The position numbers were made by a program, and so were the translations under genes. Of a DNA stretch of 64,000 nt, positions 5,839-59,851 are shown piece after piece. Within the stretch, counting starts at the first letter, position 1. Each line of letters opens with the position of its first letter. Under the pieces are notes generated by a model. That model saw nothing but the letters and a program-made list of their open reading frames with translations. It was not told where the DNA came from and did no database searches. Source of the DNA: Candidatus Dormiibacterota bacterium (GTDB lineage: Bacteria > Chloroflexota > Dormibacteria > Aeolococcales > Aeolococcaceae); the NCBI GenBank assembly GCA_963718525.1, contig OY970355.1:576001-640000 (forward strand). Direction: 5' to 3'.

Positions 5839-8568
5839 ATGCTGCTCGGGCGTGAGCGAGAGCGCGCGGCGATCGACGGCCTGCTGGCCACCATCCGCTC
5901 GGGCCGGAGTGCGGTGCTCGCGCTCGTCGGTGAGGCCGGGATTGGGAAAACTTCGATCCTTACCTACGCGGAGGAGGAGGCCACCGGGCTTGCTCTGCTG
6001 CGGGCCCGCGGTGTCGAGTTCGAGATGCAGCTCCCGTTCGCCGGCCTGTACGAGATGCTCCGTCCAGCGCTGCATCTGCTTGGCCGCATTCCGGCGCCGC
6101 GCGCAGCAGCACTCGAGGTTGCGCTCGCACTCCGGCCCAATGTGTCCGGTGGCGATCGATTCGCCGTCGGTGCAGCGACACTGAGCCTGCTCGCCGCCTA
6201 CGCAGAGGAGGCGCCAACGCTCCTGCTCATCGATGACGCCCATCTTCTGGATGCGTCGTCCGCCGAGGCCATCCGTTTCGCGTTGCGCCGGATGCTCGCG
6301 GAGCCGCTCGGGGCGGTTCTTGCAGTGCGTGAGGATGAGCCGTCGTTGCTGGACGATGCAGATCTGCCGACACTCCATGTCGTTGGGCTCGACCGCGCCG
6401 CAGCAACCGGCCTCCTCGGCGGCGTTCCTTCCGAGACGGCCGACCGGTTGTATCTCGCGACCGCTGGGAACCCCCTCGCACTGACCGAGCTGGCAAGGGA
6501 CACGTCGAGACTGGCAACGCTCGCCATCGACGCACCCATTCCCGTCCCGGCCAAGGTCACACGTGCTTTCGCCCGACGAGCTGCGCTGCTTGATGCTTCA
6601 GCGCAACGATTGCTGGCGCTTGCCACCGTCGACGAGTTTGCGGATCTTACGACGATCGACCGAGCCGCGCGATTGCTTGATCTCGATGCTGGGGGTCTTG
6701 CCGCTGCGGAGAAGGCTGGCCTTGTGCGGATTGTGAGCGGACGCGTTGAGTTTCGGCACGCGTTGGCACGAGCCGCGATTTATGGCGCATCACCGCCCGA
6801 ATACCGGCGCGAGGCACATCGGGCGCTGGCCCGTGCGCTCCCGGACCGCGATGTCGACCGGCGTGCCTGGCATCTGGGAGCCGCGGCAACCGGAACCGAC
6901 GCCACTGCGTCCGCAGCCCTCGAGCAGGCGGGATTGCGCGCACGACAGCGGAGCGCGTATGCCGTGTCGAGCGCGGCATTTGAACGGGCCGCACGGCTCG
7001 CTCCTAACGATGAGGGTCAGGCCCGCCTGCTCGCGGCGGCCGCTGAGACGACGTGGCTGGCAGGGTTCGCCGACCGGGCAATCGTGCTCCTGCAGGAGTC
7101 GCGCGCACTTGCCATGGAGACCGACCTGCTCGTGCAAATCGACCGGCTGCGCGGGCAAATCGCCGCGCGACGAGGTCCGGTCATGGAGGGCCATGCCATC
7201 CTCGTTGCCGCCGCGGACCGCGTGGCAACGGCGGCTCCTGACCTCGCCATCGGGTTACTCGCAGATGCGGTGGATGCGGCCTTTTATGCTGGCGACGTTG
7301 CCGCAATGGCGGGAAGCGCCCGGCGGATGACCGAGTTGTTGAGTCCAGCCGCGTCGACGCGATCACGGTTCCTCGCAGCCGCGACCACCGGCATGGCAAT
7401 GGTCTTCACCCGTGGCGCTCGCCTGGGCATCGAGTTGATGCGCACTGCGAAGACGCTCCTCGACCAGGATGACCATCTGCGCCACGACACGGATCTGCTC
7501 CCGTGGATCGTCATGGTGCCTCTGTATCTCCGCGAATCCGGCTCGGCTCGCTCGTTGGTTGATGAAGCAATCGACACGGCCCGAGCTCGCGCGGCACTCG
7601 GCATTCTGCCGTGGCTGCTCAATCGTGTGGCCCGCGACCACGCAGGAGCCGTCGAGTGGAGTTGCGCGAGTGTTGAATACGACGAGGCGGTGCGGCTCGC
7701 TCACGAGACCGGTCAACGCACCGAACTCGGTGCAGCGCTCGCCGGCTGGGCGTGGCTCGAGGCCCGCCAGGGGCGCGAGGCTGATTGTCGCGCACACGCC
7801 GCCGAGGCGCTAACGCTCTGCGCGGAGCTCGGGACGCACCTCTTTGAGATCTGGGCGATCCGCGCATTGGGCGAACTCGAGCTGGGGCTGGGTCGAGCCT
7901 CAGCCGCGATCGAACATCTCGAGGACGGCAATGCGCGGCTCGAGGCACACGGCATCGAGGACGTGGATCTCGTGCCGAATGCCGAGCTGATTGACGCATA
8001 CCTCCGCGTGGGTCGACGGGCGGATGCCGAGCAGCTGGTACAGGAACTCGACCTTGAAGCGACCCGGAAAGGGCAGCCATGGTCGCTGGCTCGCGCAGCC
8101 CGGTGTCGCGGCCTTGTCGCGACGGACGACGAGTTTGAGCACCACTTCGACAACGCCGTGAAGCTGCATGTGCAAACGCCCGATGTTTTCGAGCTTGGCA
8201 TTACACGGTTTGCGTACGGCGGCCGACTTCGGCGCCAGCGCCAACGGACACGCGCTCGCGACGAGCTCCGAATGGCACTCGAGATTTTTGAAGGACTTGG
8301 AGCTCAGCCGTGGGCCGAGATGACACGCGGCGAACTCCTCGCCACCGGTGAAACCGCGCGGCGGCGAGACGCGTCCGCCACGGATACGCTCACGCGCCAG
8401 GAGCTCCGTATCGCACAGATCCTCGCGACCGGTAGGACGACACGGGAAACTGCTGCCGCCCTCTTCCTGAGTCCGAAGACGATTGAGTATCACCTGCGCA
8501 GCATTTACGGGAAGCTGGGCATTAGTTCACGGGGCGAGTTGGCTTCAGCCATCGAATCACGGGACTGA
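5839..8568 (+). CDS. STAND/AAA ATPase-TPR-LuxR HTH regulator (LAL-like)
   Basis: GRERE, Walker A GEAGIGKT, LLLIDDAH, GNPLAL, FRHAL; C-terminal LTRQELRIA...LSPKTIEYHLRSIYGKLGI; TACAAT 6 nt before ATG. Confidence 0.93.
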   Translation: MLLGRERERAAIDGLLATIRSGRSAVLALVGEAGIGKTSILTYAEEEATGLALLRARGVEFEMQLPFAGLYEMLRPALHLLGRIPAPRAAALEVALALRPNVSGGDRFAVGAATLSLLAAYAEEAPTLLLIDDAHLLDASSAEAIRFALRRMLAEPLGAVLAVREDEPSLLDDADLPTLHVVGLDRAAATGLLGGVPSETADRLYLATAGNPLALTELARDTSRLATLAIDAPIPVPAKVTRAFARRAALLDASAQRLLALATVDEFADLTTIDRAARLLDLDAGGLAAAEKAGLVRIVSGRVEFRHALARAAIYGASPPEYRREAHRALARALPDRDVDRRAWHLGAAATGTDATASAALEQAGLRARQRSAYAVSSAAFERAARLAPNDEGQARLLAAAAETTWLAGFADRAIVLLQESRALAMETDLLVQIDRLRGQIAARRGPVMEGHAILVAAADRVATAAPDLAIGLLADAVDAAFYAGDVAAMAGSARRMTELLSPAASTRSRFLAAATTGMAMVFTRGARLGIELMRTAKTLLDQDDHLRHDTDLLPWIVMVPLYLRESGSARSLVDEAIDTARARAALGILPWLLNRVARDHAGAVEWSCASVEYDEAVRLAHETGQRTELGAALAGWAWLEARQGREADCRAHAAEALTLCAELGTHLFEIWAIRALGELELGLGRASAAIEHLEDGNARLEAHGIEDVDLVPNAELIDAYLRVGRRADAEQLVQELDLEATRKGQPWSLARAARCRGLVATDDEFEHHFDNAVKLHVQTPDVFELGITRFAYGGRLRRQRQRTRARDELRMALEIFEGLGAQPWAEMTRGELLATGETARRRDASATDTLTRQELRIAQILATGRTTRETAAALFLSPKTIEYHLRSIYGKLGISSRGELASAIESRD

Positions 8569-8808
8569 CATGCGCGGTCGCGGGAGGCAGCGGGCGCGTT
8601 GCGCGCCCCATCGCGGCGCAAGTGCCACGCCGTTGACGCTTGGCGCCTGAGTGGCCTCGACAGTCTCTCATTAGATCAAGGCAATCAGCTGTTCCCTCGA
8701 TTTCGACGCGCCACGCGCTGATGCCAAAGTATCCCTCCCACCTCCAGCGCCACGGGCTCGCTGAATTCCAGTGGGCGGCCTACTCCGCCATCTTGTTCGT
8801 CCAGTGGC

Positions 8809-10716
8809 TCAGACGTACGTGAACTTGTGACTCTTCGCCGATATTCCGCCTGGCGAGTGAACGACCACGCTCACGCTCCCTGCCGCATGTGCTGGGCTCG
8901 TCGCTGTGATCTCCGTGTCAGAGACGACGTGAAAGCTCGCCGCCTTACCCGCGAAGGTGACCAGCGTTGCCCCGGTCAAATTGCTGCCCGTGATGGTGAC
9001 GAAAGTGCCACCCGCTGCCGGACCGCTGGTCGGACTGATCGTCTTGACAATCGGGGCCGTGCCCCCGGTGGTATACGTGAACTGGTCCGACGTGCTGGTG
9101 GCGGACGTGCCGCTCCCCGTCGTCACGCGGACATCGACCGTGCCGCTGCCGGCCGGGCTGGTCGACGTTATCTCCGTGTTCGAGACAGGGGTGAATGCCG
9201 CCGCGGTGCCTCCGAATGTGACCGAAGTGGCACCGCTCAAGTTGAGCCCGCTGATGGTCACGGCGGTTCCCCCAGCCGGTGGCCCGCTACTCGGGCTGAC
9301 GCCGGAGACGACAGGAGACGTTCCGAGGGCGAGGATATAGAGGTTACCGTCGACGCCGGCGTCGAACACCTCACCGGCCGACACCGCCGGCGAGGCTGTG
9401 ATCTCGGTCGTCGTCGAACCGATGTTGAACGCCGTCAGCGATGACCCATTCGAGACCCGGTAGGCGTCGATATTGCCCCCCTTGTCAGGGCGAAGGACGA
9501 CCTGGTTCCCTGAGCCTCCGGACACCACCGGAGAGGCGCGAGAATGCGCTGGCGAGGCGGCTGTCCGCCAAATCAGCGTCGTGGTTCCGGTGCCTGTGGC
9601 CGTCGCACTTACGGCGTACACCCACTTGCAGAAGTTGAAGAGAACCATCGTGCCTACGAGCGCAGTTCCCGAGACGGGGTCGCTACTGCAATTCACCGTG
9701 CTCAGATCAAAGTCCCAATACAGCGCGCCCGTGGTGAAATCGAGCGCGTACTCGTGCTGGTCCTTGCCCATCACATAGACAGCGCCGTCGGTGATGCCAT
9801 TGCCACCGGGCAGCGAAATCGTCGGAGCTGCGCCGACATCCGAGTCAGCGCCCACCGCGGTTTGGAAACGCCACACCATGGCGCCGGTCGCAGCGTTGAG
9901 ACCGTACACGGAGTCATCCGGTTGGTTGCTGCCGAAGACCAGGAGCTGGCGCCCGAGCCTATCGGTTCCGAGCGCGGGCGACGACCAGCTTCCGCCGTCG
10001 GCGCCGTGGTTGGTGTTGTTCCAACTGTTGAACATCCAACGCTCGGTGCAAGCCGCACCCGCACTGTTGCCGACACCGTAGAGCGCCCATTCGTGACCCG
10101 CGTTTCGGGCTTCACTCTTTCCAGTGTCGCCGAAGAAGACCGTGGGACCGGTGCTGTCGATGTCCTCAACGAGCGGGGACGCCTCGATGCGACCACCGGT
10201 GTTGAAGGTGCAATCCAGTGCACCTGTCGTGGCATCGAAGGCATACAGGTTGAAGTCCTCACTCCCGAAGTACACCGTATTGTCAAATACTGTCGGCGAG
10301 GAGTACGCATCTTGGGGGAGCGGCTTCTGCCAGAGAATCGCACCCGTGGCCGCATTCACGGCTGCGACGGAGGGCGCCCCCGACGTCACAACGTAGACGA
10401 CGTTCTCGTTGAGAGTCGTGTTGTAGGCCACCGCCGGTGACGAGAGGATGAAGCCGCCGAGGGCCACCTTGTGTTTCAGGGTGAATGCGTCCCAACTCGA
10501 AGCACTGACCGTCGTGTCCGGCGACACGCTGGTATGGGTCGCGTTGTACCCAAGCATCGGGTAGTCGGTCCCCGTGCTCGCGTGCGCAACGATAGGCCGT
10601 GCAGCGCCGAGAGCCCCAACCACGACCGCGGCGACAAGCCCGAAGCCGATTATTGCGTGACGCTCTCTGGCGGGCGTGGTAAACCCAAGCGCCCCTGAAA
10701 GTGCCCCCATGCTCAT
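8809..10716 (-). CDS. Secreted PQQ-like (BamB-type) beta-propeller with two IPT/TIG domains
   Basis: Signal-like N-terminus, repeated SSPAV and DATTG..W motifs, C-terminal VSPSSGPPAGGTAVTISG x2; start placed at ATG after AAGGGG. Confidence 0.85.
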   Translation of the reverse strand: MSMGALSGALGFTTPARERHAIIGFGLVAAVVVGALGAARPIVAHASTGTDYPMLGYNATHTSVSPDTTVSASSWDAFTLKHKVALGGFILSSPAVAYNTTLNENVVYVVTSGAPSVAAVNAATGAILWQKPLPQDAYSSPTVFDNTVYFGSEDFNLYAFDATTGALDCTFNTGGRIEASPLVEDIDSTGPTVFFGDTGKSEARNAGHEWALYGVGNSAGAACTERWMFNSWNNTNHGADGGSWSSPALGTDRLGRQLLVFGSNQPDDSVYGLNAATGAMVWRFQTAVGADSDVGAAPTISLPGGNGITDGAVYVMGKDQHEYALDFTTGALYWDFDLSTVNCSSDPVSGTALVGTMVLFNFCKWVYAVSATATGTGTTTLIWRTAASPAHSRASPVVSGGSGNQVVLRPDKGGNIDAYRVSNGSSLTAFNIGSTTTEITASPAVSAGEVFDAGVDGNLYILALGTSPVVSGVSPSSGPPAGGTAVTISGLNLSGATSVTFGGTAAAFTPVSNTEITSTSPAGSGTVDVRVTTGSGTSATSTSDQFTYTTGGTAPIVKTISPTSGPAAGGTFVTITGSNLTGATLVTFAGKAASFHVVSDTEITATSPAHAAGSVSVVVHSPGGISAKSHKFTYV

Positions 10717-32797: not shown

Positions 32798-32922
32798 CGA
32801 ACCCCTTGCCGTGGTTACGACGGCTTGGTGATCCTAGCACCGGCCACGTTGCCCCGTCAGGACGGGCCGGGTCCGCAATCCGTGTCTCGCCAATGCCACT
32901 GTGGATGCGGGACGGTAACGAA

Positions 32923-52040: not shown

Positions 52041-53219
52041 CTAACTGCGTTCGATCACCATGGCGATGCCCTGGCCACCGCCGATGCACATCGCCGCAAT
52101 GCCCAATTCCACGTCGCGGCGCGCCATCTCGTAAAGGAGCGTGGTGAGAATGCGTGTCCCGCTGGCACCGATCGGATGGCCCAGCGCAATGGCGCCGCCG
52201 TTGACATTGACCCTGTCCTCAGGGACGGCTAGCTCCCGACATACCGCCACCGACTGAGCGGCGAAGGCCTCGTTGAGCTCGAAGAGGTCGACGTCACGAA
52301 CACCGACGCCGGCCTTGTCCATAGCCTTCCGCGCCGCCGGTACCGGCCCGATCCCCATGATGCGGGGCTCCACGCCGGCGCTGGCGTAACTGCGGATCCG
52401 GGCCAGCGGACTCAACCCCTGGGCTTTGGCGCGTGAGGCGCTCATCACCACCATGGCCGCTGCGCCGTCGTTGATACCGCTTGCGTTGCCGGCCGTGACG
52501 GTACCGTCCTTTGTGAAGGCAGAGCGCAAGCCCGACAGGACATCCAGAGTGGTGGCGGGACGCGGATGCTCATCTGTGTCGACGAGAACCGTCTCCTTGC
52601 GACGGGCTACCGGCACAGGAACGATCTCGTCCTTGAACCGGCCCGCTTTGATCGCGTCGCCGGCCTTCTGCTGCGAGGCCAGCGCAAAGCCATCCTGATC
52701 GGCCCGGCTCACCTCCCATTCTTTGGCCACGTTCTCTGCGGTAATGCCCATATGGCAGTCGGTGAAGGCGCACCAGAGTCCGTCGCGGATGATCACGTCC
52801 ACCAGCTGCCCATGGCCGAGGCGATAGCCGTAACGCCCACTGTCCATCAGGTATGGCGCGCGCGACATGTTCTCCATGCCACCCGCCACCATGCACTCGG
52901 CATCGCCGAGGCGGATCGCCTGAGCGGCTAACGCCACCGTCTTCAATCCAGAGCCGCACACCTTGTTGACGGTCATGGCTGGGACGGCCGTCGACAGATT
53001 GGCCCCGAGCGCCGCCTGCCGCGCGGGGTTCTGGCCGAGGCCTGCCTGTAGTACGTTCCCCATGAGGAGCTCCTCGACCTGGTCGGCGTCGATGCCGGCG
53101 CGTCGGATGGCCTCCTCCACGACGATGGCACCGAGTGTCGTCGCCGGAACCTCAACAAATATGCCCCCCACTGTGCCCACCGGCGTCCGGACGGCGCTGA
53201 CGATGACGGCCTCTTCCAC
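52041..53219 (-). CDS. phaA: Acetyl-CoA acetyltransferase (beta-ketothiolase)
   Basis: [30 protein letters not shown]; lies in the PHA cluster. Confidence 0.92.
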
Positions 53220-53505
53220 CCTGGTTGCCCTACTTGTAACGGACGGTCACGAACGGTCGCTCTCTCGCGGCGCGCCGACGCGCGAAGCGCCTCACTTCCA
53301 CGCACGATCCTACGCCGATTTCTCCCGACGTCTATCAAGGCGCCGGAGCGGACTCCAGCTGCAACCGCGGAGCCCGGTCAGCTTGATCAGCGTTGCCGCG
53401 GTGAGCAGCGGACGCATTCCCTGGGCCACGGTCTGCTCGATGGCCTCACGTCACGAGCACCAAGTTGGCACGTGGGCCGCGGGGCGGCCACAGAAGGTTG
53501 AGGTC

Positions 53506-53537
53506 AGGAGCGCGCAGCGTCGCGCTGGCGCTCCTGC
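53506..53537 (-). terminator. Hairpin after phasin-like gene
   Basis: CAGGAGCGCGCAGCG-tcg-CGCTGGCGCTCCTG. Confidence 0.5.
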
Positions 53538-53542
53538 CGGAG

Positions 53543-53824
53543 TCAGTTGGAGGCGACGGATCCCAGCTGCTTCAGAGTGGCGATCCCGAACTCGTACTGC
53601 CACTCGACAAACTTGGTCACGACGGCGAAGTTGCGATCCACCACGGTGTCGATGGCCGGAATTAGCTCCTCAGAGTTGGGAAGCGCGAACACGCTGAGCG
53701 GAACCAACACGGAGGTGATGCTCTTGAGGACCTCCGTAGCTGCAAGCTTGATCTCAGTCGTGCGTTGGAGGCCTTCCGCCACTGCAGCGTTGGCGGTGCG
53801 TGTGTAATCGGCGTAGTCGGTCAT
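53543..53824 (-). CDS. Small helical orphan, candidate phasin / granule protein
   Basis: 93 aa, amphipathic-looking (VVDRNFAVVTKFVEWQYEFG), GAGG RBS, consensus-like promoter, PHA cluster context. Confidence 0.65.
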   Translation of the reverse strand: MTDYADYTRTANAAVAEGLQRTTEIKLAATEVLKSITSVLVPLSVFALPNSEELIPAIDTVVDRNFAVVTKFVEWQYEFGIATLKQLGSVASN

Positions 53825-53877
53825 GACTGTTTCCTCGTGACCTCCGGGGCCCGTTGGGCTCCTACTGGAGAGGCTGT

Positions 53878-53910
53878 GCTAAGTCTACCAAGCGGACGCT
53901 AGGTTGTCAA
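53878..53910 (-). promoter_or_regulatory. Sigma70 promoter with overlapping palindromic operator
   Basis: Minus strand TTGACA-17-TAGACT; GCTTGG-TAGA-CTTAGC at 53878-53893 covers the -10. Confidence 0.75.
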
Positions 53911-54028
53911 CCCGAGGCTGCTCATGTCTCCAGCGATACCACCAAAGGCTGGTGCTCCATGGGTTCGAACGGACGGCTCGGAGGTGTCCTCGGGCTGGCC
54001 CGAAGGCCAACCGGTCGGTGAGGCAGAG

Positions 54029-54427
54029 CTAGCGGGACGCGACAGCCGCCAGTTCCTTCCAGGCGGTCTCGAGCGCCGAAAGATTCTCGCAACCGAGCAC
54101 GAGACTCGTGTCAGTCGCCAGGTACGCCACGGTCAGGTTGATGCCGGCGTCGGCGAGGCGACGCGTGACATTACCAAGCATGCCGGGGTGATTCTCAACG
54201 CGCTCAACGATCACTTCCGCCTCGCGGGTGACCTTGTAGCCGACCTTGGTGATGGCGCGGCCAGTCGCGGCTCTGTCTGTGGTCAGCAGGTGGAAGATAA
54301 CGCTCCCATTCTCCTCGACCGCAGACAGGCCCTCGATATTGATCTTCTCGCGCCCCAGCTCCTCCGCGAGGGTCGCAAGACTGCCCTTGGCGTGCGGGAC
54401 GACGATGGTGAAGTCATATGCGTACAT
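54029..54427 (-). CDS. Tandem ACT-domain protein
   Basis: PHAKGSLATLAEELGREKINI and ENHPGMLGNVTRRLADAGINL. Confidence 0.85.
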   Translation of the reverse strand: MYAYDFTIVVPHAKGSLATLAEELGREKINIEGLSAVEENGSVIFHLLTTDRAATGRAITKVGYKVTREAEVIVERVENHPGMLGNVTRRLADAGINLTVAYLATDTSLVLGCENLSALETAWKELAAVASR

Positions 54428-54554
54428 GACTGTCCTCCTGTGTCGGGCGCCGAGTAGCTCAGCTGGCCTGCGAACCACCGTGCGCGTGCTGTCATACAAA
54501 ACGCAACCGGTGCGAACCGCGCATTGTCATCGGGCGACGCATATGGGTCGCGAT

Positions 54555-54583
54555 GTGACATTCGGTCCCGTGGCGAATGTCAC
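54555..54583. promoter_or_regulatory. Perfect 10-bp inverted repeat / paired DosR-like boxes in a divergent promoter
   Basis: GTGACATTCG-N9-CGAATGTCAC. Confidence 0.6.
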
Positions 54584-54652
54584 TCGCCTCTGGTGGTGCG
54601 GACACAAGCGCGTCGATGCTGTCAGGAAACCGGCAGACACCGAAGGAGAACA

Positions 54653-56182
54653 GTGAGGAGCGCGACACGCACCCTTGGCGCCGATGCGACACTGCCGCTG
54701 TTGATCCAGGGCGGCATGGGTGTGGCAGTCTCCAACCATCGCCTCGCCCGCGCTGTGGCCATGACGGGTCATCTCGGCGTCGTCTCCGGGACGGCTATTG
54801 ATCTCGTGCTCGTGCGGCGGCTCCAGGACGGTGATCCCGATGGCGAGATGCGAAACGCGATTGCGCAATTTCCAGTGACCGCCATCGCAGAGCAGGTAAT
54901 GGAGCGCTACTTCCTTCCTGACGGGCGCCGCCAGCGTCCCTATCGCAACATCTCGATGCACTCACATCGCGACAAGCACGTGTCTCAAGACCTGCTCGTG
55001 CTCGCCGCGTTCGTCGAGGTGATGCTCGCCAAGCGCGGGCACGATGGACACATCGGCATCAACCTGCTGACCAAGGTGCAGATCCCTACAGTGCCGACGC
55101 TGTTCGGCGCGATGCTCGCGTCTGTCGACTACGTGCTCATGGGAGCGGGAATCCCCCGCGAGATACCAGGCATTCTCGACCGTCTCGCTGCGATGCTGGC
55201 GGTGGAGACACGGCTCGACGTCATCGGCGCCGCTGCCGCCGACACCATTCCCCATCTCCGCTTCGATCCCAATCGCTTCGATGTCAGCACTGCACCGCGC
55301 CGTCCGGCGTTCCTGCCAATCGTGTCGTCGCATACCCTGGCGACCGTCTTGGCCCGCAAGGCGAACGGCTCGGTCGAGGGCTTCATCGTCGAGGCACCGA
55401 CGGCGGGTGGGCACAACGCGCCGCCACGGGGCACGCCAACCTATGACGCAATCGGACAGCCGTGCTACGGCGAGCGCGACCACGTCGATCTCGCAGCCAT
55501 GCGCGCCCTGGGCCTGCCCTTCTGGCTGGCGGGCGGCAGGGACACACCGGAACGCGTTCGAGACGCGCTCGCAGTTGGTGCAACCGGCGTCCAGGTGGGC
55601 ACGCTCTTCGCCTTCTGCCGTGAATCGGGAATCGCGCCTGCGTTGCGCCGCGCCGTTCTCGACACCGTGGAGAGCGGGCGCGAATTCGTGCTCACGTCGT
55701 CACGCGCGTCGTCGACCGGGTATCCGTTCAAGGTGGCCTCGGTCCCCGGGACCCTGTCTGAGCGGGGGGTCTACACGGCCCGGACGCGCGTCTGCGACCT
55801 GGGCTACCTGCGCGAGGCATATGTGAAGTCAGGGGCCGGCGTTGGCTACCGATGCCCCGGCGAGCCGGTTGGCGATTATGTCGCCAAGGGTGGCGATGCT
55901 TCCGCCACCGTTGACCGCATGTGTCTGTGCAACGGCCTCGCGGCCACGGTCGGGCTCGGCCAGGTGCGGGTCGCCGGTCTTGAACCTGGCGTGATCACGA
56001 GCGGTGACGGCCTCGCCGCCGTACGGACGATGTTGATTGACGATGACGATTACTCCGCCGCCGATGTTGTCACTCACCTGCTGGGCGGCCTTCGGGGCGC
56101 GTCGGCGACCTCTGACGGACCTCATCTTGAGGCGACGAAAGACGGGTCACACTTGGAGGCGGCGCATACACGGAGTGTCTGA
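54653..56182 (+). CDS. Nitronate monooxygenase / FabK-like FMN enzyme with C-terminal Cys cluster
   Basis: LIQGGMGV, MGAGIP, AGGHN, GVQVGT; RVCDLG, YRCPGE, MCLCNGL; GTG after AAGGAG. Confidence 0.85.
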   Translation: MRSATRTLGADATLPLLIQGGMGVAVSNHRLARAVAMTGHLGVVSGTAIDLVLVRRLQDGDPDGEMRNAIAQFPVTAIAEQVMERYFLPDGRRQRPYRNISMHSHRDKHVSQDLLVLAAFVEVMLAKRGHDGHIGINLLTKVQIPTVPTLFGAMLASVDYVLMGAGIPREIPGILDRLAAMLAVETRLDVIGAAAADTIPHLRFDPNRFDVSTAPRRPAFLPIVSSHTLATVLARKANGSVEGFIVEAPTAGGHNAPPRGTPTYDAIGQPCYGERDHVDLAAMRALGLPFWLAGGRDTPERVRDALAVGATGVQVGTLFAFCRESGIAPALRRAVLDTVESGREFVLTSSRASSTGYPFKVASVPGTLSERGVYTARTRVCDLGYLREAYVKSGAGVGYRCPGEPVGDYVAKGGDASATVDRMCLCNGLAATVGLGQVRVAGLEPGVITSGDGLAAVRTMLIDDDDYSAADVVTHLLGGLRGASATSDGPHLEATKDGSHLEAAHTRSV

Positions 56183-56257
56183 TCGTTCTGCGGTCGTCGA
56201 CAGACCATCGCTCAGGCCCGGCGGGAGGGCCTAACCCTGGACTACGATGGTCGGACT

Positions 56258-57043
56258 ATGGCTGTCGTTGAGCCGGCTGCCAGCGATGCAGCGACGCCGC
56301 GCCTCTTCTCCGGAAAAGTGGCCATCGTCACCGGGGGTTCCCGCGGTATCGGTGCGGCGATCACCCGAGAGCTCATACGCCATGGCGCGCACGTGGCGGC
56401 CGGGTTCAACCGCGACGCCGAGTCCGCTGCGGCCTTGCGCGACGAGCTCTCCGGTCTCGGTGGCTCGATCTCGGTGCATCAGGGCAACGTTGGTGTCCCT
56501 GCGGACTGTACCCGCGTGGTCGACGAGGTCTTGACCGCATACGGTCAGGTCGACTTCCTGGTCAACAATGCCGGCATCACCGTTGACAAGACCGTCCGGA
56601 AGATGAGCGTCGAGGACTGGCATGCGGTGATGCGGATCAACATCTCGGGCGCGTTCTACATGATGAAGGCCGTTCTGGACCACATGCTCGAACGAGGCAA
56701 CGGGCGGATCGTCAATCTGAGCTCGGTCATCGGCCAGACCGGAAATATCGGGCAGGCCAACTACGCTGCCTCAAAGGCGGCGCTCTACGAACTCACCCAA
56801 AGCCTTGCGCTAGAAACGGCTCGCAAAGGGATCACGGTCAATTGCGTGGCCCCGGGATTCATCGCAACCGAGATGGTGGCCAAGATCCCGCAGCCCATCC
56901 TCGACGGCATCATCGAGAAGGTACCGATCCGGCGGCTCGGCCAGCCCGACGAGGTGGCTCGCGTGGTCCGCTTCCTTCTCGAGGATGAGTCGTCGTATAT
57001 CACCGGTGCGATGTACGCCGTGAACGGCGGCCTGTTCATGTGA
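56258..57043 (+). CDS. phaB: Acetoacetyl-CoA reductase (SDR)
   Basis: TGGSRGIG, NNAGIT, GQANYAASK, PGFIATEM; directly before phaC. Confidence 0.88.
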   Translation: MAVVEPAASDAATPRLFSGKVAIVTGGSRGIGAAITRELIRHGAHVAAGFNRDAESAAALRDELSGLGGSISVHQGNVGVPADCTRVVDEVLTAYGQVDFLVNNAGITVDKTVRKMSVEDWHAVMRINISGAFYMMKAVLDHMLERGNGRIVNLSSVIGQTGNIGQANYAASKAALYELTQSLALETARKGITVNCVAPGFIATEMVAKIPQPILDGIIEKVPIRRLGQPDEVARVVRFLLEDESSYITGAMYAVNGGLFM

Positions 57044-57050
57044 TCGGCTC

Positions 57051-58811
57051 GTGAGCAACGATGCCGGCGAGGACACCGCCTATGAGGCCCTGCTGGCCAA
57101 GGTAGACCAGAGCGATTTCGGAGGAGCGTTCCGCAGCGTGTTCCTCGGTGACGCGATACGTCACCCGCTGCACGTCGCGAAGGCCGGCCTGGATCTCTCG
57201 GCCGGGCAGGCCGCGGTAGCGGCGCGTGCTGCTCAGCGCGCATTGGGCCGCGGAAAGGCTGATCCGGTTGCTCCGGAGGACAACCGCTTTGCGGACCGGA
57301 CCTGGCAAGCGAACCCTGCCTTCCGGACCCTGGCCGAAAGTTATCTGAGCACCGTGCAGTGGGCGCGGCAGCTGGTCGAGACGTCTCACGCTCCCGCCGT
57401 CCAACGCGAAAAGGCGCGGTTCGCACTCGATCTCATGCTCGATGCGCTCGCTCCGACCAATGTGCCGTGGATGAATCCCGCCGTCTTGAAGGAGACATTC
57501 GAAACGGGTGGGCAGAGCCTCATCGCAGGCGCGAGCAACTTCGTCGACGATTTGCTTCACAACGGGGGACGGCCTCGACAGGTCGACGCCACATCATTCA
57601 GTCTCGGCAAAAACCTCGCGGCGACACCTGGGCGCGTGGTGATGCGCAACGCGCTCATCGAGTTGCTGATGTACAAGCCGCAAACCGATCTGGTCCACGC
57701 GCAACCGATCATGTGCAGCCCACCCTGGATCAACAAGTACTACATCATGGATCTGGCACCCGGGCGATCCTTCATCGAGTACGCGGTGCAGCACGGCTTC
57801 ACTGTGTTCTGCATCAGCTATCGGAACCCCGACGCGTCAATGCGGGAAGTCAGCTGGGACGACTATCTGCAGCTCGGGCTGATGGCGGCGCTCGACCAGG
57901 CGAGCATAATCACCGGCTCACCGGTTGTGAACATCGTCGGCCTCTGTCTCGGGGGAACAATGTCGACGATCGGCCTGGCCCACCTTGCGGCTAAGGGCAA
58001 GGCCGAACGAGTGGGCTGGATGACCGTCACCAACACGCTCGTCGACTTCAGCATCCCCGGCAATCTCGGCGTCTTCGCCGACCGCAAGAGCGTGGCACGC
58101 CTCGAAAAGAACATGAAGCAGCGTGGCTATCTGGAGGCGTCAGCGATGGCGCAGACGTTCGACTGGCTGCGCGGCAACGACCTGGTCTGGAATTACGTCA
58201 TCAACAACTGGTACATGGGCAAGACCCCACCAGCATTCGATCTCCTTGCGTGGAATGGGGACAGCACGAACATGCCGGCGGCGATGCACACGCAATACCT
58301 TCGAGCCTGCTACGTCGACAACCTGCTGATTCGCCCCGGTGCGTTTCAGATCGCCGGAACCCCGATCGATCTCAGGAAGATCAAGCAGCCCATGTACGTG
58401 CTCGGCGCCGAGAACGACCACATCGCCCCCTGGAAGGGATCGTATCTGACGACCCAACACGTCGGCGGCGAGGTGCGCTACACGCTGACGTCGAGCGGGC
58501 ATGTTGCCGGGATCGTCAATCCGCCCGGCAACCCGAAGGCCGCGTTCTGGACTCGCCCGCATGCGAATCGCGGTATCGATGCCGAGGCATGGCGAGCGGG
58601 AGCAGAACGTGTGAGCGGGAGTTGGTGGGACGACTGGGTTGCGTGGGCTGCCGAAAGGTCGGGGGAACTCGTTGCGCCGCCACGAGTTCCGCTCGGAGAC
58701 CCGGCACCCGGGAGCTACGCCAAGGGCGAGACGGCTCGACTCTTCGAAGCTCGATCCTCGGCACGCCGGTCCCAGCGTGCTCGAACTGGCGCAGCAGCGA
58801 AGAGTTCCTGA
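57051..58811 (+). CDS. phaC: Polyhydroxyalkanoate synthase (single-subunit, class I/II type)
   Basis: DNRF, PPWINKYYIMDL, lipase box GLCLGG, WNGD, NDHIAPW, SGHVAG, GSWW. Confidence 0.95.
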   Translation: MSNDAGEDTAYEALLAKVDQSDFGGAFRSVFLGDAIRHPLHVAKAGLDLSAGQAAVAARAAQRALGRGKADPVAPEDNRFADRTWQANPAFRTLAESYLSTVQWARQLVETSHAPAVQREKARFALDLMLDALAPTNVPWMNPAVLKETFETGGQSLIAGASNFVDDLLHNGGRPRQVDATSFSLGKNLAATPGRVVMRNALIELLMYKPQTDLVHAQPIMCSPPWINKYYIMDLAPGRSFIEYAVQHGFTVFCISYRNPDASMREVSWDDYLQLGLMAALDQASIITGSPVVNIVGLCLGGTMSTIGLAHLAAKGKAERVGWMTVTNTLVDFSIPGNLGVFADRKSVARLEKNMKQRGYLEASAMAQTFDWLRGNDLVWNYVINNWYMGKTPPAFDLLAWNGDSTNMPAAMHTQYLRACYVDNLLIRPGAFQIAGTPIDLRKIKQPMYVLGAENDHIAPWKGSYLTTQHVGGEVRYTLTSSGHVAGIVNPPGNPKAAFWTRPHANRGIDAEAWRAGAERVSGSWWDDWVAWAAERSGELVAPPRVPLGDPAPGSYAKGETARLFEARSSARRSQRARTGAAAKSS

Positions 58812-58821
58812 CCGACGATCC

Positions 58822-59277
58822 TCAGTGGGACGTCCGCTTCGCCCTGGCGGGCGCCGCCTTGGAGGGCACGGCTTTGGTGGCCGTCTTGCGCGCCGGGCGT
58901 GACGGGGTCGGGCGATCCGCTGACGGCTGCTGAGTGGCGATCAAGCCTCGATACACCTGGATCAATGCCTGCTTGGCTTCCTGAGTGAGCCGACCGTCCA
59001 CCCGGATGGCGTCCTCGACAGTCAGGATGGGGCGTTCCACCGAGTTATCGAGTAGGCCAGCCTCCCGGTACAGGGTCTCGGCGGACATGTCAAGCGCGTC
59101 CGCGATCCCCTTGAGCACTTGCGCTGATGGCGTATACACGCCGCGTTCGATCTGACTGAGGTAAGGATTCGACACCTTGGCCAGCCCCGCGAGCTGGCGC
59201 ATCGAGAGTGACATCAGCTCCCGCTGCGTGCGGATGAAGTCTCCTACTGACTTGAACGGTGGCGTGGGCTCGGGCAT
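58822..59277 (-). CDS. XRE-family regulator (Rv0474/MLDSR-like) with Lys/Ala/Pro-rich tail
   Basis: GDFIRTQRE..SMRQLA...VSNPYLSQIERG...SAETLY..AGLL..VEDAI..D..LT...KQAL; tail PARKTATKAVPSKAAPARAKR; TACCAT 6 nt before ATG. Confidence 0.88.
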   Translation of the reverse strand: MPEPTPPFKSVGDFIRTQRELMSLSMRQLAGLAKVSNPYLSQIERGVYTPSAQVLKGIADALDMSAETLYREAGLLDNSVERPILTVEDAIRVDGRLTQEAKQALIQVYRGLIATQQPSADRPTPSRPARKTATKAVPSKAAPARAKRTSH

Positions 59278-59291
59278 GAGCCAATGGTAGC

Positions 59292-59351
59292 GCTTGGGGA
59301 GCCAAGCTGATGGAGGGTTGACATAGGCAGCACCTGCTTGGTATACTAAGC
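59292..59351. promoter_or_regulatory. Divergent promoter with two GCTTGG-N4-CYAAGC operators
   Basis: GCTTGG-GGAG-CCAAGC 59292-59307; TTGACA 59318-59323, 18 nt, TGn-TATACT 59342-59347 covered by GCTTGG-TATA-CTAAGC 59336-59351. Confidence 0.8.
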
Positions 59352-59386
59352 ACTCCACAACAGCCTCGCTACAAAGGAGACCACCC

Positions 59387-59659
59387 ATGACCGACAACCA
59401 GACGTATCTGACCGACCTGCAGAAGCAGTTCCTGACTGCGCTCCAGAAGGTGGGCGAGGTTCAGGCAAAGCTCTACGAGGCAGTTCGCGATATGCCGGCA
59501 ACTCTCGAGAGTGGCCAGATGACTCCCGCCGAGATGGTGGAGAAGTCGTTCGACTTCGCGGCTCAGGTGCTCAACACCCAGCGCGATATGACCCTTCAGC
59601 TCATCAACGCCGCTGGTGGAACACCGACCAAGACCCGGACGGCGAAGCAAACCGCGTAA
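59387..59659 (+). CDS. Small helical orphan, candidate phasin / granule protein
   Basis: 90 aa, PAEMVEKSFDFAAQVLNTQRDMT amphipathic helix, basic tail; AAGGAG RBS. Confidence 0.75.
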   Translation: MTDNQTYLTDLQKQFLTALQKVGEVQAKLYEAVRDMPATLESGQMTPAEMVEKSFDFAAQVLNTQRDMTLQLINAAGGTPTKTRTAKQTA

Positions 59660-59662
59660 ACC

Positions 59663-59698
59663 CTCGATACGGGTCGAGGCGACTCGACCCGTATCGAG
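59663..59698 (+). terminator. Perfect 16-bp hairpin with GCGA tetraloop
   Basis: CTCGATACGGGTCGAG-gcga-CTCGACCCGTATCGAG. Confidence 0.75.
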
Positions 59699-59709
59699 TC
59701 CAAGCCACG

Positions 59710-59851
59710 CTTCCCAATGCTGAGACGCTGATTCCCCGCGATCGACAGGGTGGTTGATCGCAACTTCGGCATCGTGCTCAAGGTCGTCGAGTGGCAGCAC
59801 GACATCGCGACTTCGGCTCTCGGTCACCTGGGATCCGCCGCGTCAAACTGA
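59710..59851 (+). pseudogene. Frameshifted 3' relic of the 53543-53824 phasin-like gene, inverted
   Basis: LPNAETLIP(+1 C)AIDRVVDRNFGIVLKVVEWQHDIATSALGHLGSAASN* versus LPNSEELIPAIDTVVDRNFAVVTKFVEWQYEFGIATLKQLGSVASN*. Confidence 0.85.

Follow-up and report, generated by a model that had tools for sequence, protein, structure and literature searches.

A 64-kb window of the genome of a Candidatus Dormiibacterota bacterium (contig OY970355.1) contains a polyhydroxyalkanoate (PHA) storage locus in which phaA, phaB and phaC sit with a gene for an XRE-type regulator and two genes for small two-helix proteins. By the window we mean the whole stretch that was analysed; it is part of a 3.34-Mb single-contig genome with 66% G+C and a marker completeness of 88.9%. 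We think it likely, with considerable room for doubt, that the regulatory module of this locus is a repressor of the MLDSR family together with two-helix proteins of a divergent Phasin_2-like branch. The regulator family is known; new is that, within a pha cluster and in a phylum lacking PhaR, it is paired with an unannotated Phasin_2-like branch. We found no description of such an XRE–phasin circuit in the literature searched, subscription journals being outside its coverage. The control of PHA-granule coating outside Proteobacteria and Firmicutes is largely obscure, and Dormibacteria are abundant uncultured soil bacteria. The main genes of the locus are as follows (window coordinates; aa, amino acids; pI, isoelectric point).

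52041..53219, minus strand: phaA-type acetyl-CoA acetyltransferase, 392 aa, with Thiolase_N and Thiolase_C domains
53543..53824, minus strand: phasin-like small protein 1A, 93 aa, pI 4.6, two long helices
56258..57043, plus strand: phaB-type acetoacetyl-CoA reductase, 261 aa, with an adh_short domain; 283 bits against TIGR01829, just below the cut-off of 302
57051..58811, plus strand: class-I-type PHA synthase PhaC, 586 aa, with PhaC_N (E 6.8e-58, 195.6 bits) and Abhydrolase_1 domains
58822..59277, minus strand: MLDSR-family XRE regulator, 151 aa, pI 10, with N-terminal HTH_3, a conserved helix (LTQEAKQALIQVYRGL) and a Lys/Ala/Pro-rich tail
59387..59659, plus strand: phasin-like small protein 2, 90 aa, pI 5.2, with helices at residues 2-42 and 47-77 and a disordered basic tail

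MLDSR is the lipid-droplet regulator of Rhodococcus jostii RHA1, where MLDSR and MLDS are ro02105 and ro02104; such pairs lie beside HBHA/TadA-type genes in Mycobacteriales, and MLDSR is sequestered by lipid droplets, its helices alpha2 and alpha6 associating with the storage body (Zhang et al. 2017, PMC5504291). On sequence comparison the window XRE is a member of this family and orthologous to R. jostii MLDSR, and an earlier note on this DNA, which called it MLDSR-like, is borne out. Its N terminus is an XRE-type helix-turn-helix (HTH_3 E 1e-11, HTH_31 E 7e-9), it is 50% identical to R. jostii MLDSR over 103 aa (E 2e-31) with the recognition helix (VSNPYLSQIERG stretch) unchanged, and the two proteins are reciprocal best matches (88 vs 36.6 bits one way, 88.8 vs 31.4 the other). 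We placed it in a tree of 68 rows, from which identical segments and matches of fewer than 55 aligned residues were dropped and in which the manner of collection biases the actinobacterial rows. There the window XRE groups with actinobacterial MLDSR homologues, one of them from a Mycobacterium sp., and away from three XRE paralogues (support 97/86); 12 Dormibacteria XREs form one clade (99/97) inside the MLDSR group, beside one Acidimicrobiia sequence and one further sequence. Similarity continues beyond the helix-turn-helix, where the window helix LTQEAKQALIQVYRGL aligns with ITERQKQVLLEIYESF of MLDSR; judged from the truncation limits given for MLDSR (PMC5504291), this helix would be its alpha6. 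The start of the window gene is placed at ATG 59277 by sequence and by conservation in 26 genomes, and its transcript is probably leaderless, with TACCAT 6 nt before that ATG. At its other end the protein closes with a Lys/Ala/Pro-rich tail (…PARKTATKAVPSKAAPARAKRTSH, window 58822-58900). PAKKA-like tails are found on some actinobacterial MLDSR homologues (L063, L069, L133), and the tail recalls the non-specific DNA-binding tail described for MLDS (PMC5504291).

The XRE gene and both small-protein genes share a 16-bp dyad, GCTTGG-N4-CYWAGC, which covers the -10 of each small-protein promoter. The control elements of the locus are:

53877-53913, minus strand: promoter of small protein 1A, GGGTTGACAACCTAGCGTCCGCTTGGTAGACTTAGCA, with -35 TTGACA at 53910-53905 and -10 TAGACT at 53887-53882
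53878..53893, minus strand: operator box over the 1A -10, GCTTGGTAGACTTAGC
59289-59284, minus strand: putative XRE -10, TACCAT, kept as TAnnAT in 26 aligned genomes
59292..59307, no strand assigned: distal operator box, a perfect dyad, GCTTGGGGAGCCAAGC, 2 nt upstream of the XRE -10
59315-59352, plus strand: promoter of small protein 2, GGGTTGACATAGGCAGCACCTGCTTGGTATACTAAGCA, with -35 TTGACA at 59318-59323, an 18-nt spacer and -10 TATACT at 59342-59347
59336-59351, plus strand: proximal operator box over the protein 2 -10, GCTTGGTATACTAAGC

The gene layout and the coordinates of the two promoters and of the distal palindrome are all present as the earlier note gave them. A genome-wide scan finds the dyad at five sites, where six first-order Markov simulations gave 0-2 (mean 0.83); for the form that overlaps the -10, GCTTGGTANACTNAGC, the counts are three in the genome and none in the simulations. 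Three of the sites lie over the -10 of 1A, of a 1A copy at genome positions 2055770-2056057 and of protein 2, one is the palindrome upstream of the XRE gene, and one is at window 32823. The last (32823-32838, GCTTGGTGATCCTAGC) was considered as a conserved operator and rejected: two relatives that keep the region, one of them without the XRE, read GCCTGG there, and the match is probably due to chance. It lies between genes for a GAF/HisKA_3 histidine kinase (minus strand) and a Crp-family regulator (plus strand) and overlaps a minus-strand TAGGAT hexamer.

The two copies between the XRE gene and gene 2 are 44 bp apart. Alignment of this intergenic region from 26 genomes of the genus shows GCGCTTGG and CCA of the distal box to be invariant, with a varying central N4, and GCTTGGTA-n-ACT-A-AGC of the proximal region to be invariant or nearly so; the XRE -10, GGTTGACA and the ribosome-binding site are also conserved, and the inter-box spacer and the leader are variable. 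Upstream of 1A orthologues in other genomes, TTGACAAyCTAGC...GCTTGGTAnACTTAGC is kept. The layout of two boxes, the first covering the -10 of the small-protein gene and the second immediately preceding that of the XRE gene, is also present in genera g126, g134, g5 and g3. On a metagenome contig (L197) the interval between XRE gene and phasin-like gene, which is the part examined, has a single box with perfect half-sites, overlapping a -35-like TTGACA. Published work describes the MLDSR box as a 16-bp palindrome, 5'-GNT(T/A)GCTNNTGCTANC-3', with two upstream copies (promoter and operator), and a 20-bp operator motif 1, GTGCTTGCAATTGCTAGCAC, that reads GCTTG-CAATTG-CTAGC (PMC5504291). Set against motif 1 in the form GCTTG-N6-CTAGC, the window dyad GCTTG-N6-YWAGC matches in length and outer half-sites and differs at inner positions. 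Hence the shared operator proposed in the earlier note finds support both in the position and symmetry kept across genera and in the likeness of its length and outer half-sites to those of the MLDSR box.

Because the box overlaps promoters of paralogous genes (1A, its copy and 2), it might instead be promoter architecture, such as an extended -10 or a discriminator, that was copied with the duplicated genes and shares their ancestry, the XRE regulating something else. The TGG before the -10 would suit an extended -10 (TGn). We regard this explanation as very improbable. The distal box lies outside the small-protein promoter and is a perfect dyad with conserved arms and a variable centre; the box is kept though proteins 1 and 2 are only about 16-21% identical; it occurs with the XRE in five further genera of the family and on L197; and in its half-sites it agrees with the operator that experiments mapped for the orthologous MLDSR (PMC5504291). 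Moreover, the genome has 31 TTGACA-N17/18-TANNNT sites, of which just three, all small-protein promoters, carry GCTTGG before the -10, and the box is therefore not a general promoter feature. Four soil runs labelled as RNA are uninformative on transcription, starts and levels: 5-8% of the sampled words are present in them, their contigs are mostly 90-95% alike (relatives), and three are possibly DNA.

The small proteins belong, as far as profile comparison can tell, to a divergent phasin-like (Phasin_2-like) superfamily that is not related to MLDS. Both are all-helical in AlphaFold2 models (1A: helices 4-47 and 55-92, predicted local distance difference test score, pLDDT, 58; protein 2: helix-loop-helix, pLDDT 74.6), and their genes lie about 2-4 kb from phaC in the window and in related genomes. 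The family of 1A has 94 matches, all from metagenomes or Dormibacteria, and that of protein 2 has 120, known only from metagenomes and Dormibacteria. In hhalign the two align end to end (E 4e-4, probability 34%) and are bridged by intermediates, their coding sequences having diverged to the low identity given above, and genus g126 has a single open reading frame (ORF) beside phaC that is matched by both the A1 and the A2 profile. A joint alignment of the superfamily (A3), which includes protein 1A and one row from an unpublished genome (G203), is coherent. Its profile, searched against 1.84 billion representatives, gives 326 representative clusters at E <= 0.001, nearly all of 80-120 aa and matched over their full length. 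We scanned 142 of the best 150 against Pfam, leaving out five known close members and three of 45, 61 and 2043 aa: Phasin_2 (PF09361) is matched by 13 distant members of the 142 at E 2e-6 to 8e-3, no other family recurs, and one member alone (P0378) exceeds the Phasin_2 gathering score (28.3 bits vs 24.9). In the Atlas, protein 2 is nearest to unannotated clusters of about 105 aa (score 0.92), with Actinomycetota the commonest known phylum; the nearest Pfam-bearing clusters are all PHA-related, carrying Phasin_2, PHB_acc or PHA_synth_III_E, and with scores of 0.81-0.82 they count as no more than leads.

The earlier note had described two orphan genes of an uncharacterised phasin family. Both genes are there and neither product matches Pfam directly, but the two proteins are homologues and bear a remote resemblance to Phasin_2, so relatives exist, and the genome holds three intact family members and a remnant rather than two genes. 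The third intact gene, the 1A copy (95 aa; genome 2055770-2056057, minus strand; L198:2271-2558), lies outside the window, and its promoter is again TTGACA...GCTTGGTATACTTAGC. Divergently oriented to it is an acetyl-CoA hydrolase/transferase gene that is split, with the N-terminal and the C-terminal domain in two overlapping ORFs in different frames, which points to a frameshift or an assembly error; downstream there is a weak Crp-like (cNMP-binding) ORF. Kinship of the small proteins with MLDS was tried and discarded: BLASTP gave nothing significant, and local hhalign of A1-A4 against 48 MLDS homologues gave probabilities of at most 1.2%. The small proteins have no Apolipoprotein match and no PAKKA repeat, MLDS itself having a weak Apolipoprotein match. 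The A1 and A2 hidden Markov models match nothing in 80 actinobacterial MLDSR loci, and the A4 profile has just two matches in 121 Mycobacteriales genomes. A cluster look-up of ten distant A3 members returned no names or taxa, and P0392 had no match among metagenome contigs.

PhaM and PhaF are examples of proteins that tether granules to the nucleoid, and the small proteins could likewise be partners of the XRE, either tethers of this kind or an anti-repressor, rather than a structural coat. The small gene follows the XRE gene on the same strand in g126 and on L197, protein 2 and several relatives have a short C-terminal tail rich in Lys, Ala and Thr, and amphipathicity is not significant in either window protein. 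Yet this tail has no more than about 13 residues in protein 2 and is lacking in protein 1, relatives have weak Phasin_2 matches, and near-consensus promoters, strong ribosome-binding sites (AAGGAG) and multiple gene copies fit abundant structural proteins; a partner role seems to us improbable.

The module keeps company with phaC. The GTDB family comprises 117 genomes for these counts, including the window genome (G000) and the unpublished G203, and the XRE is found in 42 of them and PhaC_N in 45, distributed as follows.

XRE present: phaC (PhaC_N) present in 39 genomes, absent from 3
XRE absent: phaC (PhaC_N) present in 6 genomes, absent from 69

Where both are present, the XRE lies at most 4 kb from the PhaC_N match on the same contig in 37 of 39 genomes, the other two being fragmentary assemblies, and this adjacency persists despite gene-order differences between genera. 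A small-protein match occurs in 40 of the 42 XRE genomes. Homologues of the XRE and the small proteins thus co-occur with phaC, which the earlier note had named as a test of its proposal. Among the six genomes with phaC only, there is one in which phaC lies at the end of a contig and another with just a 27-bit fragment; the others are G304, G307, G248 and G251, and the loci of the first three carry a different phaC type (about 40% identity). Contig L197, the only locus obtained with P0371 against metagenome contigs, has phaC (minus strand), an XRE 57% identical to that of the window (plus strand) and a phasin-like gene (plus strand; A3 probability 97%).

Canonical counterparts are missing from the genome. 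The PhaR domains PF07879 (PHB_acc_N) and PF05233 (PHB_acc) are found nowhere in it and were detected in the control genome, Caulobacter; the phasin families PF09361 (Phasin_2) and PF05597 (Phasin) are likewise absent from it and were detected in control genomes. Phasin_2 exceeds its cut-off in 1 of 301 sampled Chloroflexota genomes. What the earlier note said of the cluster, that it has no recognisable phaR, thus extends to the whole contig at its 88.9% completeness, where no canonical phaR that could account for the sites was found.

We propose the following circuit. The XRE, presumably as a dimer, would bind the dyad; in the promoters of 1A, of its copy at 2.056 Mb and of gene 2 the -10 lies inside the dyad, and bound XRE would exclude RNA polymerase there. 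At its own promoter the dyad is 2 nt upstream of the -10 of a probably leaderless transcript, and binding would give autorepression. Nascent granules may then titrate the XRE off the DNA through its conserved post-helix-turn-helix helix, by analogy with MLDSR on lipid droplets and PhaR on polyhydroxybutyrate (PHB). The phasin-like genes would be derepressed and their products would coat the granule, and once free granule surface vanishes the XRE would return to the DNA.

Several results weigh against this reading of the locus. DNA binding, the sign of regulation, sequestration by granules and granule localisation of the small proteins are steps that we infer, and MLDSR is reported to activate or to repress depending on its ratio to DNA (PMC5504291), which makes the sign uncertain here. 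Of the 12 positions that the published MLDSR consensus specifies, the distal box satisfies only 7, the differences being at inner positions. Proteins 1A and 2 have no significant Pfam or NCBIfam match (protein 2 reaches only chance level, E 0.02 or worse), and their link to Phasin_2 is transitive, through distant relatives. Nor is the maximal hydrophobic moment of either above that of 500 shuffles (fraction 0.28 and 0.10). Foldseek of the protein 2 model against the PDB returned nothing at E <= 0.001 and generic helical hairpins only, and the A3 profile found nothing below E 0.39 among PDB sequences. The genomes of the family are kin and non-independent, hence the 39 of 42 XRE genomes with phaC come without a co-occurrence statistic.

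The remaining difficulties concern the storage body itself, which in the window organism could be a lipid droplet. The window genome has two WS/DGAT genes. All three genomes with the XRE and no PhaC_N match (G083, G206, G207) have WS/DGAT, and in G206 (L154, G206:C126:1-16000, about 7800-10100) the order is acyl-CoA dehydrogenase, XRE, small protein and a convergent WS/DGAT gene; the same spot in G207 has the XRE and then ABC-transporter genes, and the small protein was not found there. Since XRE–small-protein pairs without phaC exist, the module may not be PHA-specific. MLDSR, the sole characterised family member, regulates lipid droplets (PMC5504291), and it is conceivable that the module serves neutral-lipid bodies generally, that is, WS/DGAT triacylglycerol or wax-ester droplets, and that its adjacency to phaC is secondary. 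We consider this unlikely: in 37 of the 39 genomes with both genes the distance from XRE to phaC is at most 4 kb despite several rearrangements, as it is on L197, the distant relatives of the small proteins match Phasin_2 and not apolipoprotein-like families, a relaxed scan finds no box with two or fewer mismatches near either WS/DGAT gene of the window genome, and two of the three genomes lacking phaC are just 77% and 86% complete. A circuit acting on PHA granules remains the reading that we prefer, at the strength given at the outset.

The other features of the locus are:

54029..54499, minus strand: ACT-domain protein, 156 aa (Pfam ACT E 2.8e-10)
54524..56182, plus strand: nitronate-monooxygenase-like (NMO/FabK-like) flavoprotein, 551 aa (Pfam NMO E 1.5e-15, weak NCBIfam FabK match), with an uncertain start codon
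59664..59697, plus strand: conserved 15-bp stem-loop without a U tract, directly 3' of the protein 2 stop codon and before the degraded 1B gene
59700..59851, plus strand: remnant of a fourth family gene (type 1B), whose frames 1 and 3 read LPNAETLIP / AIDRVVDRNFGIVLKVVEWQHD...SAASN*

The NMO/FabK-like gene is directly 5' of phaB-phaC on the same strand, and the ACT-domain gene is on the opposite strand; neither is standard in pha operons. The phaA product reaches E-values down to 8e-166 against NCBIfam acetyl-CoA C-acetyltransferase models, yet stays under their equivalog cut-offs. With PhaC_N, an alpha/beta-hydrolase domain and a single-subunit length of about 590 aa, PhaC fits a class I PHA synthase; against TIGR01838 it scores 555 bits, under the subfamily cut-off of 623. 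The 1B remnant has lost its ribosome-binding site and about the first 46 codons and carries one 1-base frameshift; the A1 profile matches it with one TGA inside, and close relatives keep an intact 1B gene after protein 2. RNAalifold on eight sequences gives the stem-loop -29.6 kcal/mol, with one pair changed in compensation from G-C to A-U in three of the eight; its role may be that of an intercistronic stabiliser, of a processing site or of a terminator that lacks the U tract.

Were the proposed circuit true, PHA granule biology would be linked to actinobacterial lipid-droplet biology, usually a separate field, and a regulator–operator pair would be named that is directly testable in vitro or in PHB-producing E. 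coli. A sizeable family of "hypothetical" proteins of about 100 aa would probably be phasins; storage metabolism in metagenomes would then be annotated better, and the family would be a source of small granule-binding tags. A broader proposal, which we hold with rather more doubt than conviction, is that MLDSR-type XREs are cross-phylum sensors of free surface on hydrophobic storage bodies of any kind. The body would be the triacylglycerol droplet with coats of MLDS/HBHA type in Actinomycetota, and in Dormibacteria the PHA granule, and possibly a wax-ester body, with an undescribed Phasin_2-like coat family (the 326 representative clusters). In Dormibacteria PhaR would be functionally replaced by this module, and the coat gene would be exchangeable cargo while regulator and dyad are kept.

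Of the known systems, MLDSR-MLDS is compared first. Both have an orthologous regulator and a 16-bp dyad with outer half-sites GCTTG...CWAGC, present in two control-region copies with one at a promoter (PMC5504291). In both, the regulator gene adjoins a gene for a helical storage-body protein, here a phasin-like candidate, and the order XRE to small gene in g126 and L197 mirrors that of mldsr and mlds. An exact search for motif 1 in contigs of one genome per species gave 84 stretches (80 loci analysed), Actinomycetota by record title bar a few metagenome-assembled genomes. An MLDSR homologue is next to the motif in 75 of the 80 loci, and an MLDS-type gene follows it in 63 of these 75. In the other 12 the downstream helical gene is not recognisably of MLDS type. 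That the 20-bp R. jostii operator is letter-identical in 84 species is unusually strong conservation for an operator (L061-L140); by record title these species are spread over Nocardia, Rhodococcus, Amycolatopsis, Williamsia, Frankiaceae, Nocardioides, Streptomyces and Acidimicrobiia. The window system differs from MLDSR-MLDS in its regulated proteins, which have about 90 aa and two helices, no similarity to the 274-aa MLDS and no PAKKA repeats, and in its phaCAB neighbourhood in place of a lipid-droplet context. In the window genus the genes are divergent and form no operon, the inner operator positions differ, and the host belongs to Dormibacteria (Chloroflexota in GTDB), not Actinomycetota.

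In Cupriavidus, Paracoccus and Rhodobacter, the PhaR-PhaP circuit has an autoregulated repressor, encoded in the pha cluster or close to it, with sites both in the phasin promoter and in that of its own gene, and the surface of the nascent PHB granule is believed to titrate PhaR. The logic that we propose for the window XRE would be the same by analogy, whereas the window genome has no PHB_acc_N or PHB_acc domain, its regulator has an XRE-type helix-turn-helix and its operator is unrelated. With Phasin_2 (PF09361) the small proteins share their small size, a structure of helices alone and a gene location within PHA clusters, and 13 of 142 distant relatives match that family; in contrast, the window proteins and all their close relatives have no PF09361 score and, at 90-93 aa, they are shorter than many phasins. 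Other regulators of phasins than PhaR exist in PhaQ of Bacillus megaterium and PhaD (TetR type) of Pseudomonas. These belong to other protein families than XRE, and they are precedents for varied DNA-binding folds in the control of phasins across phyla.

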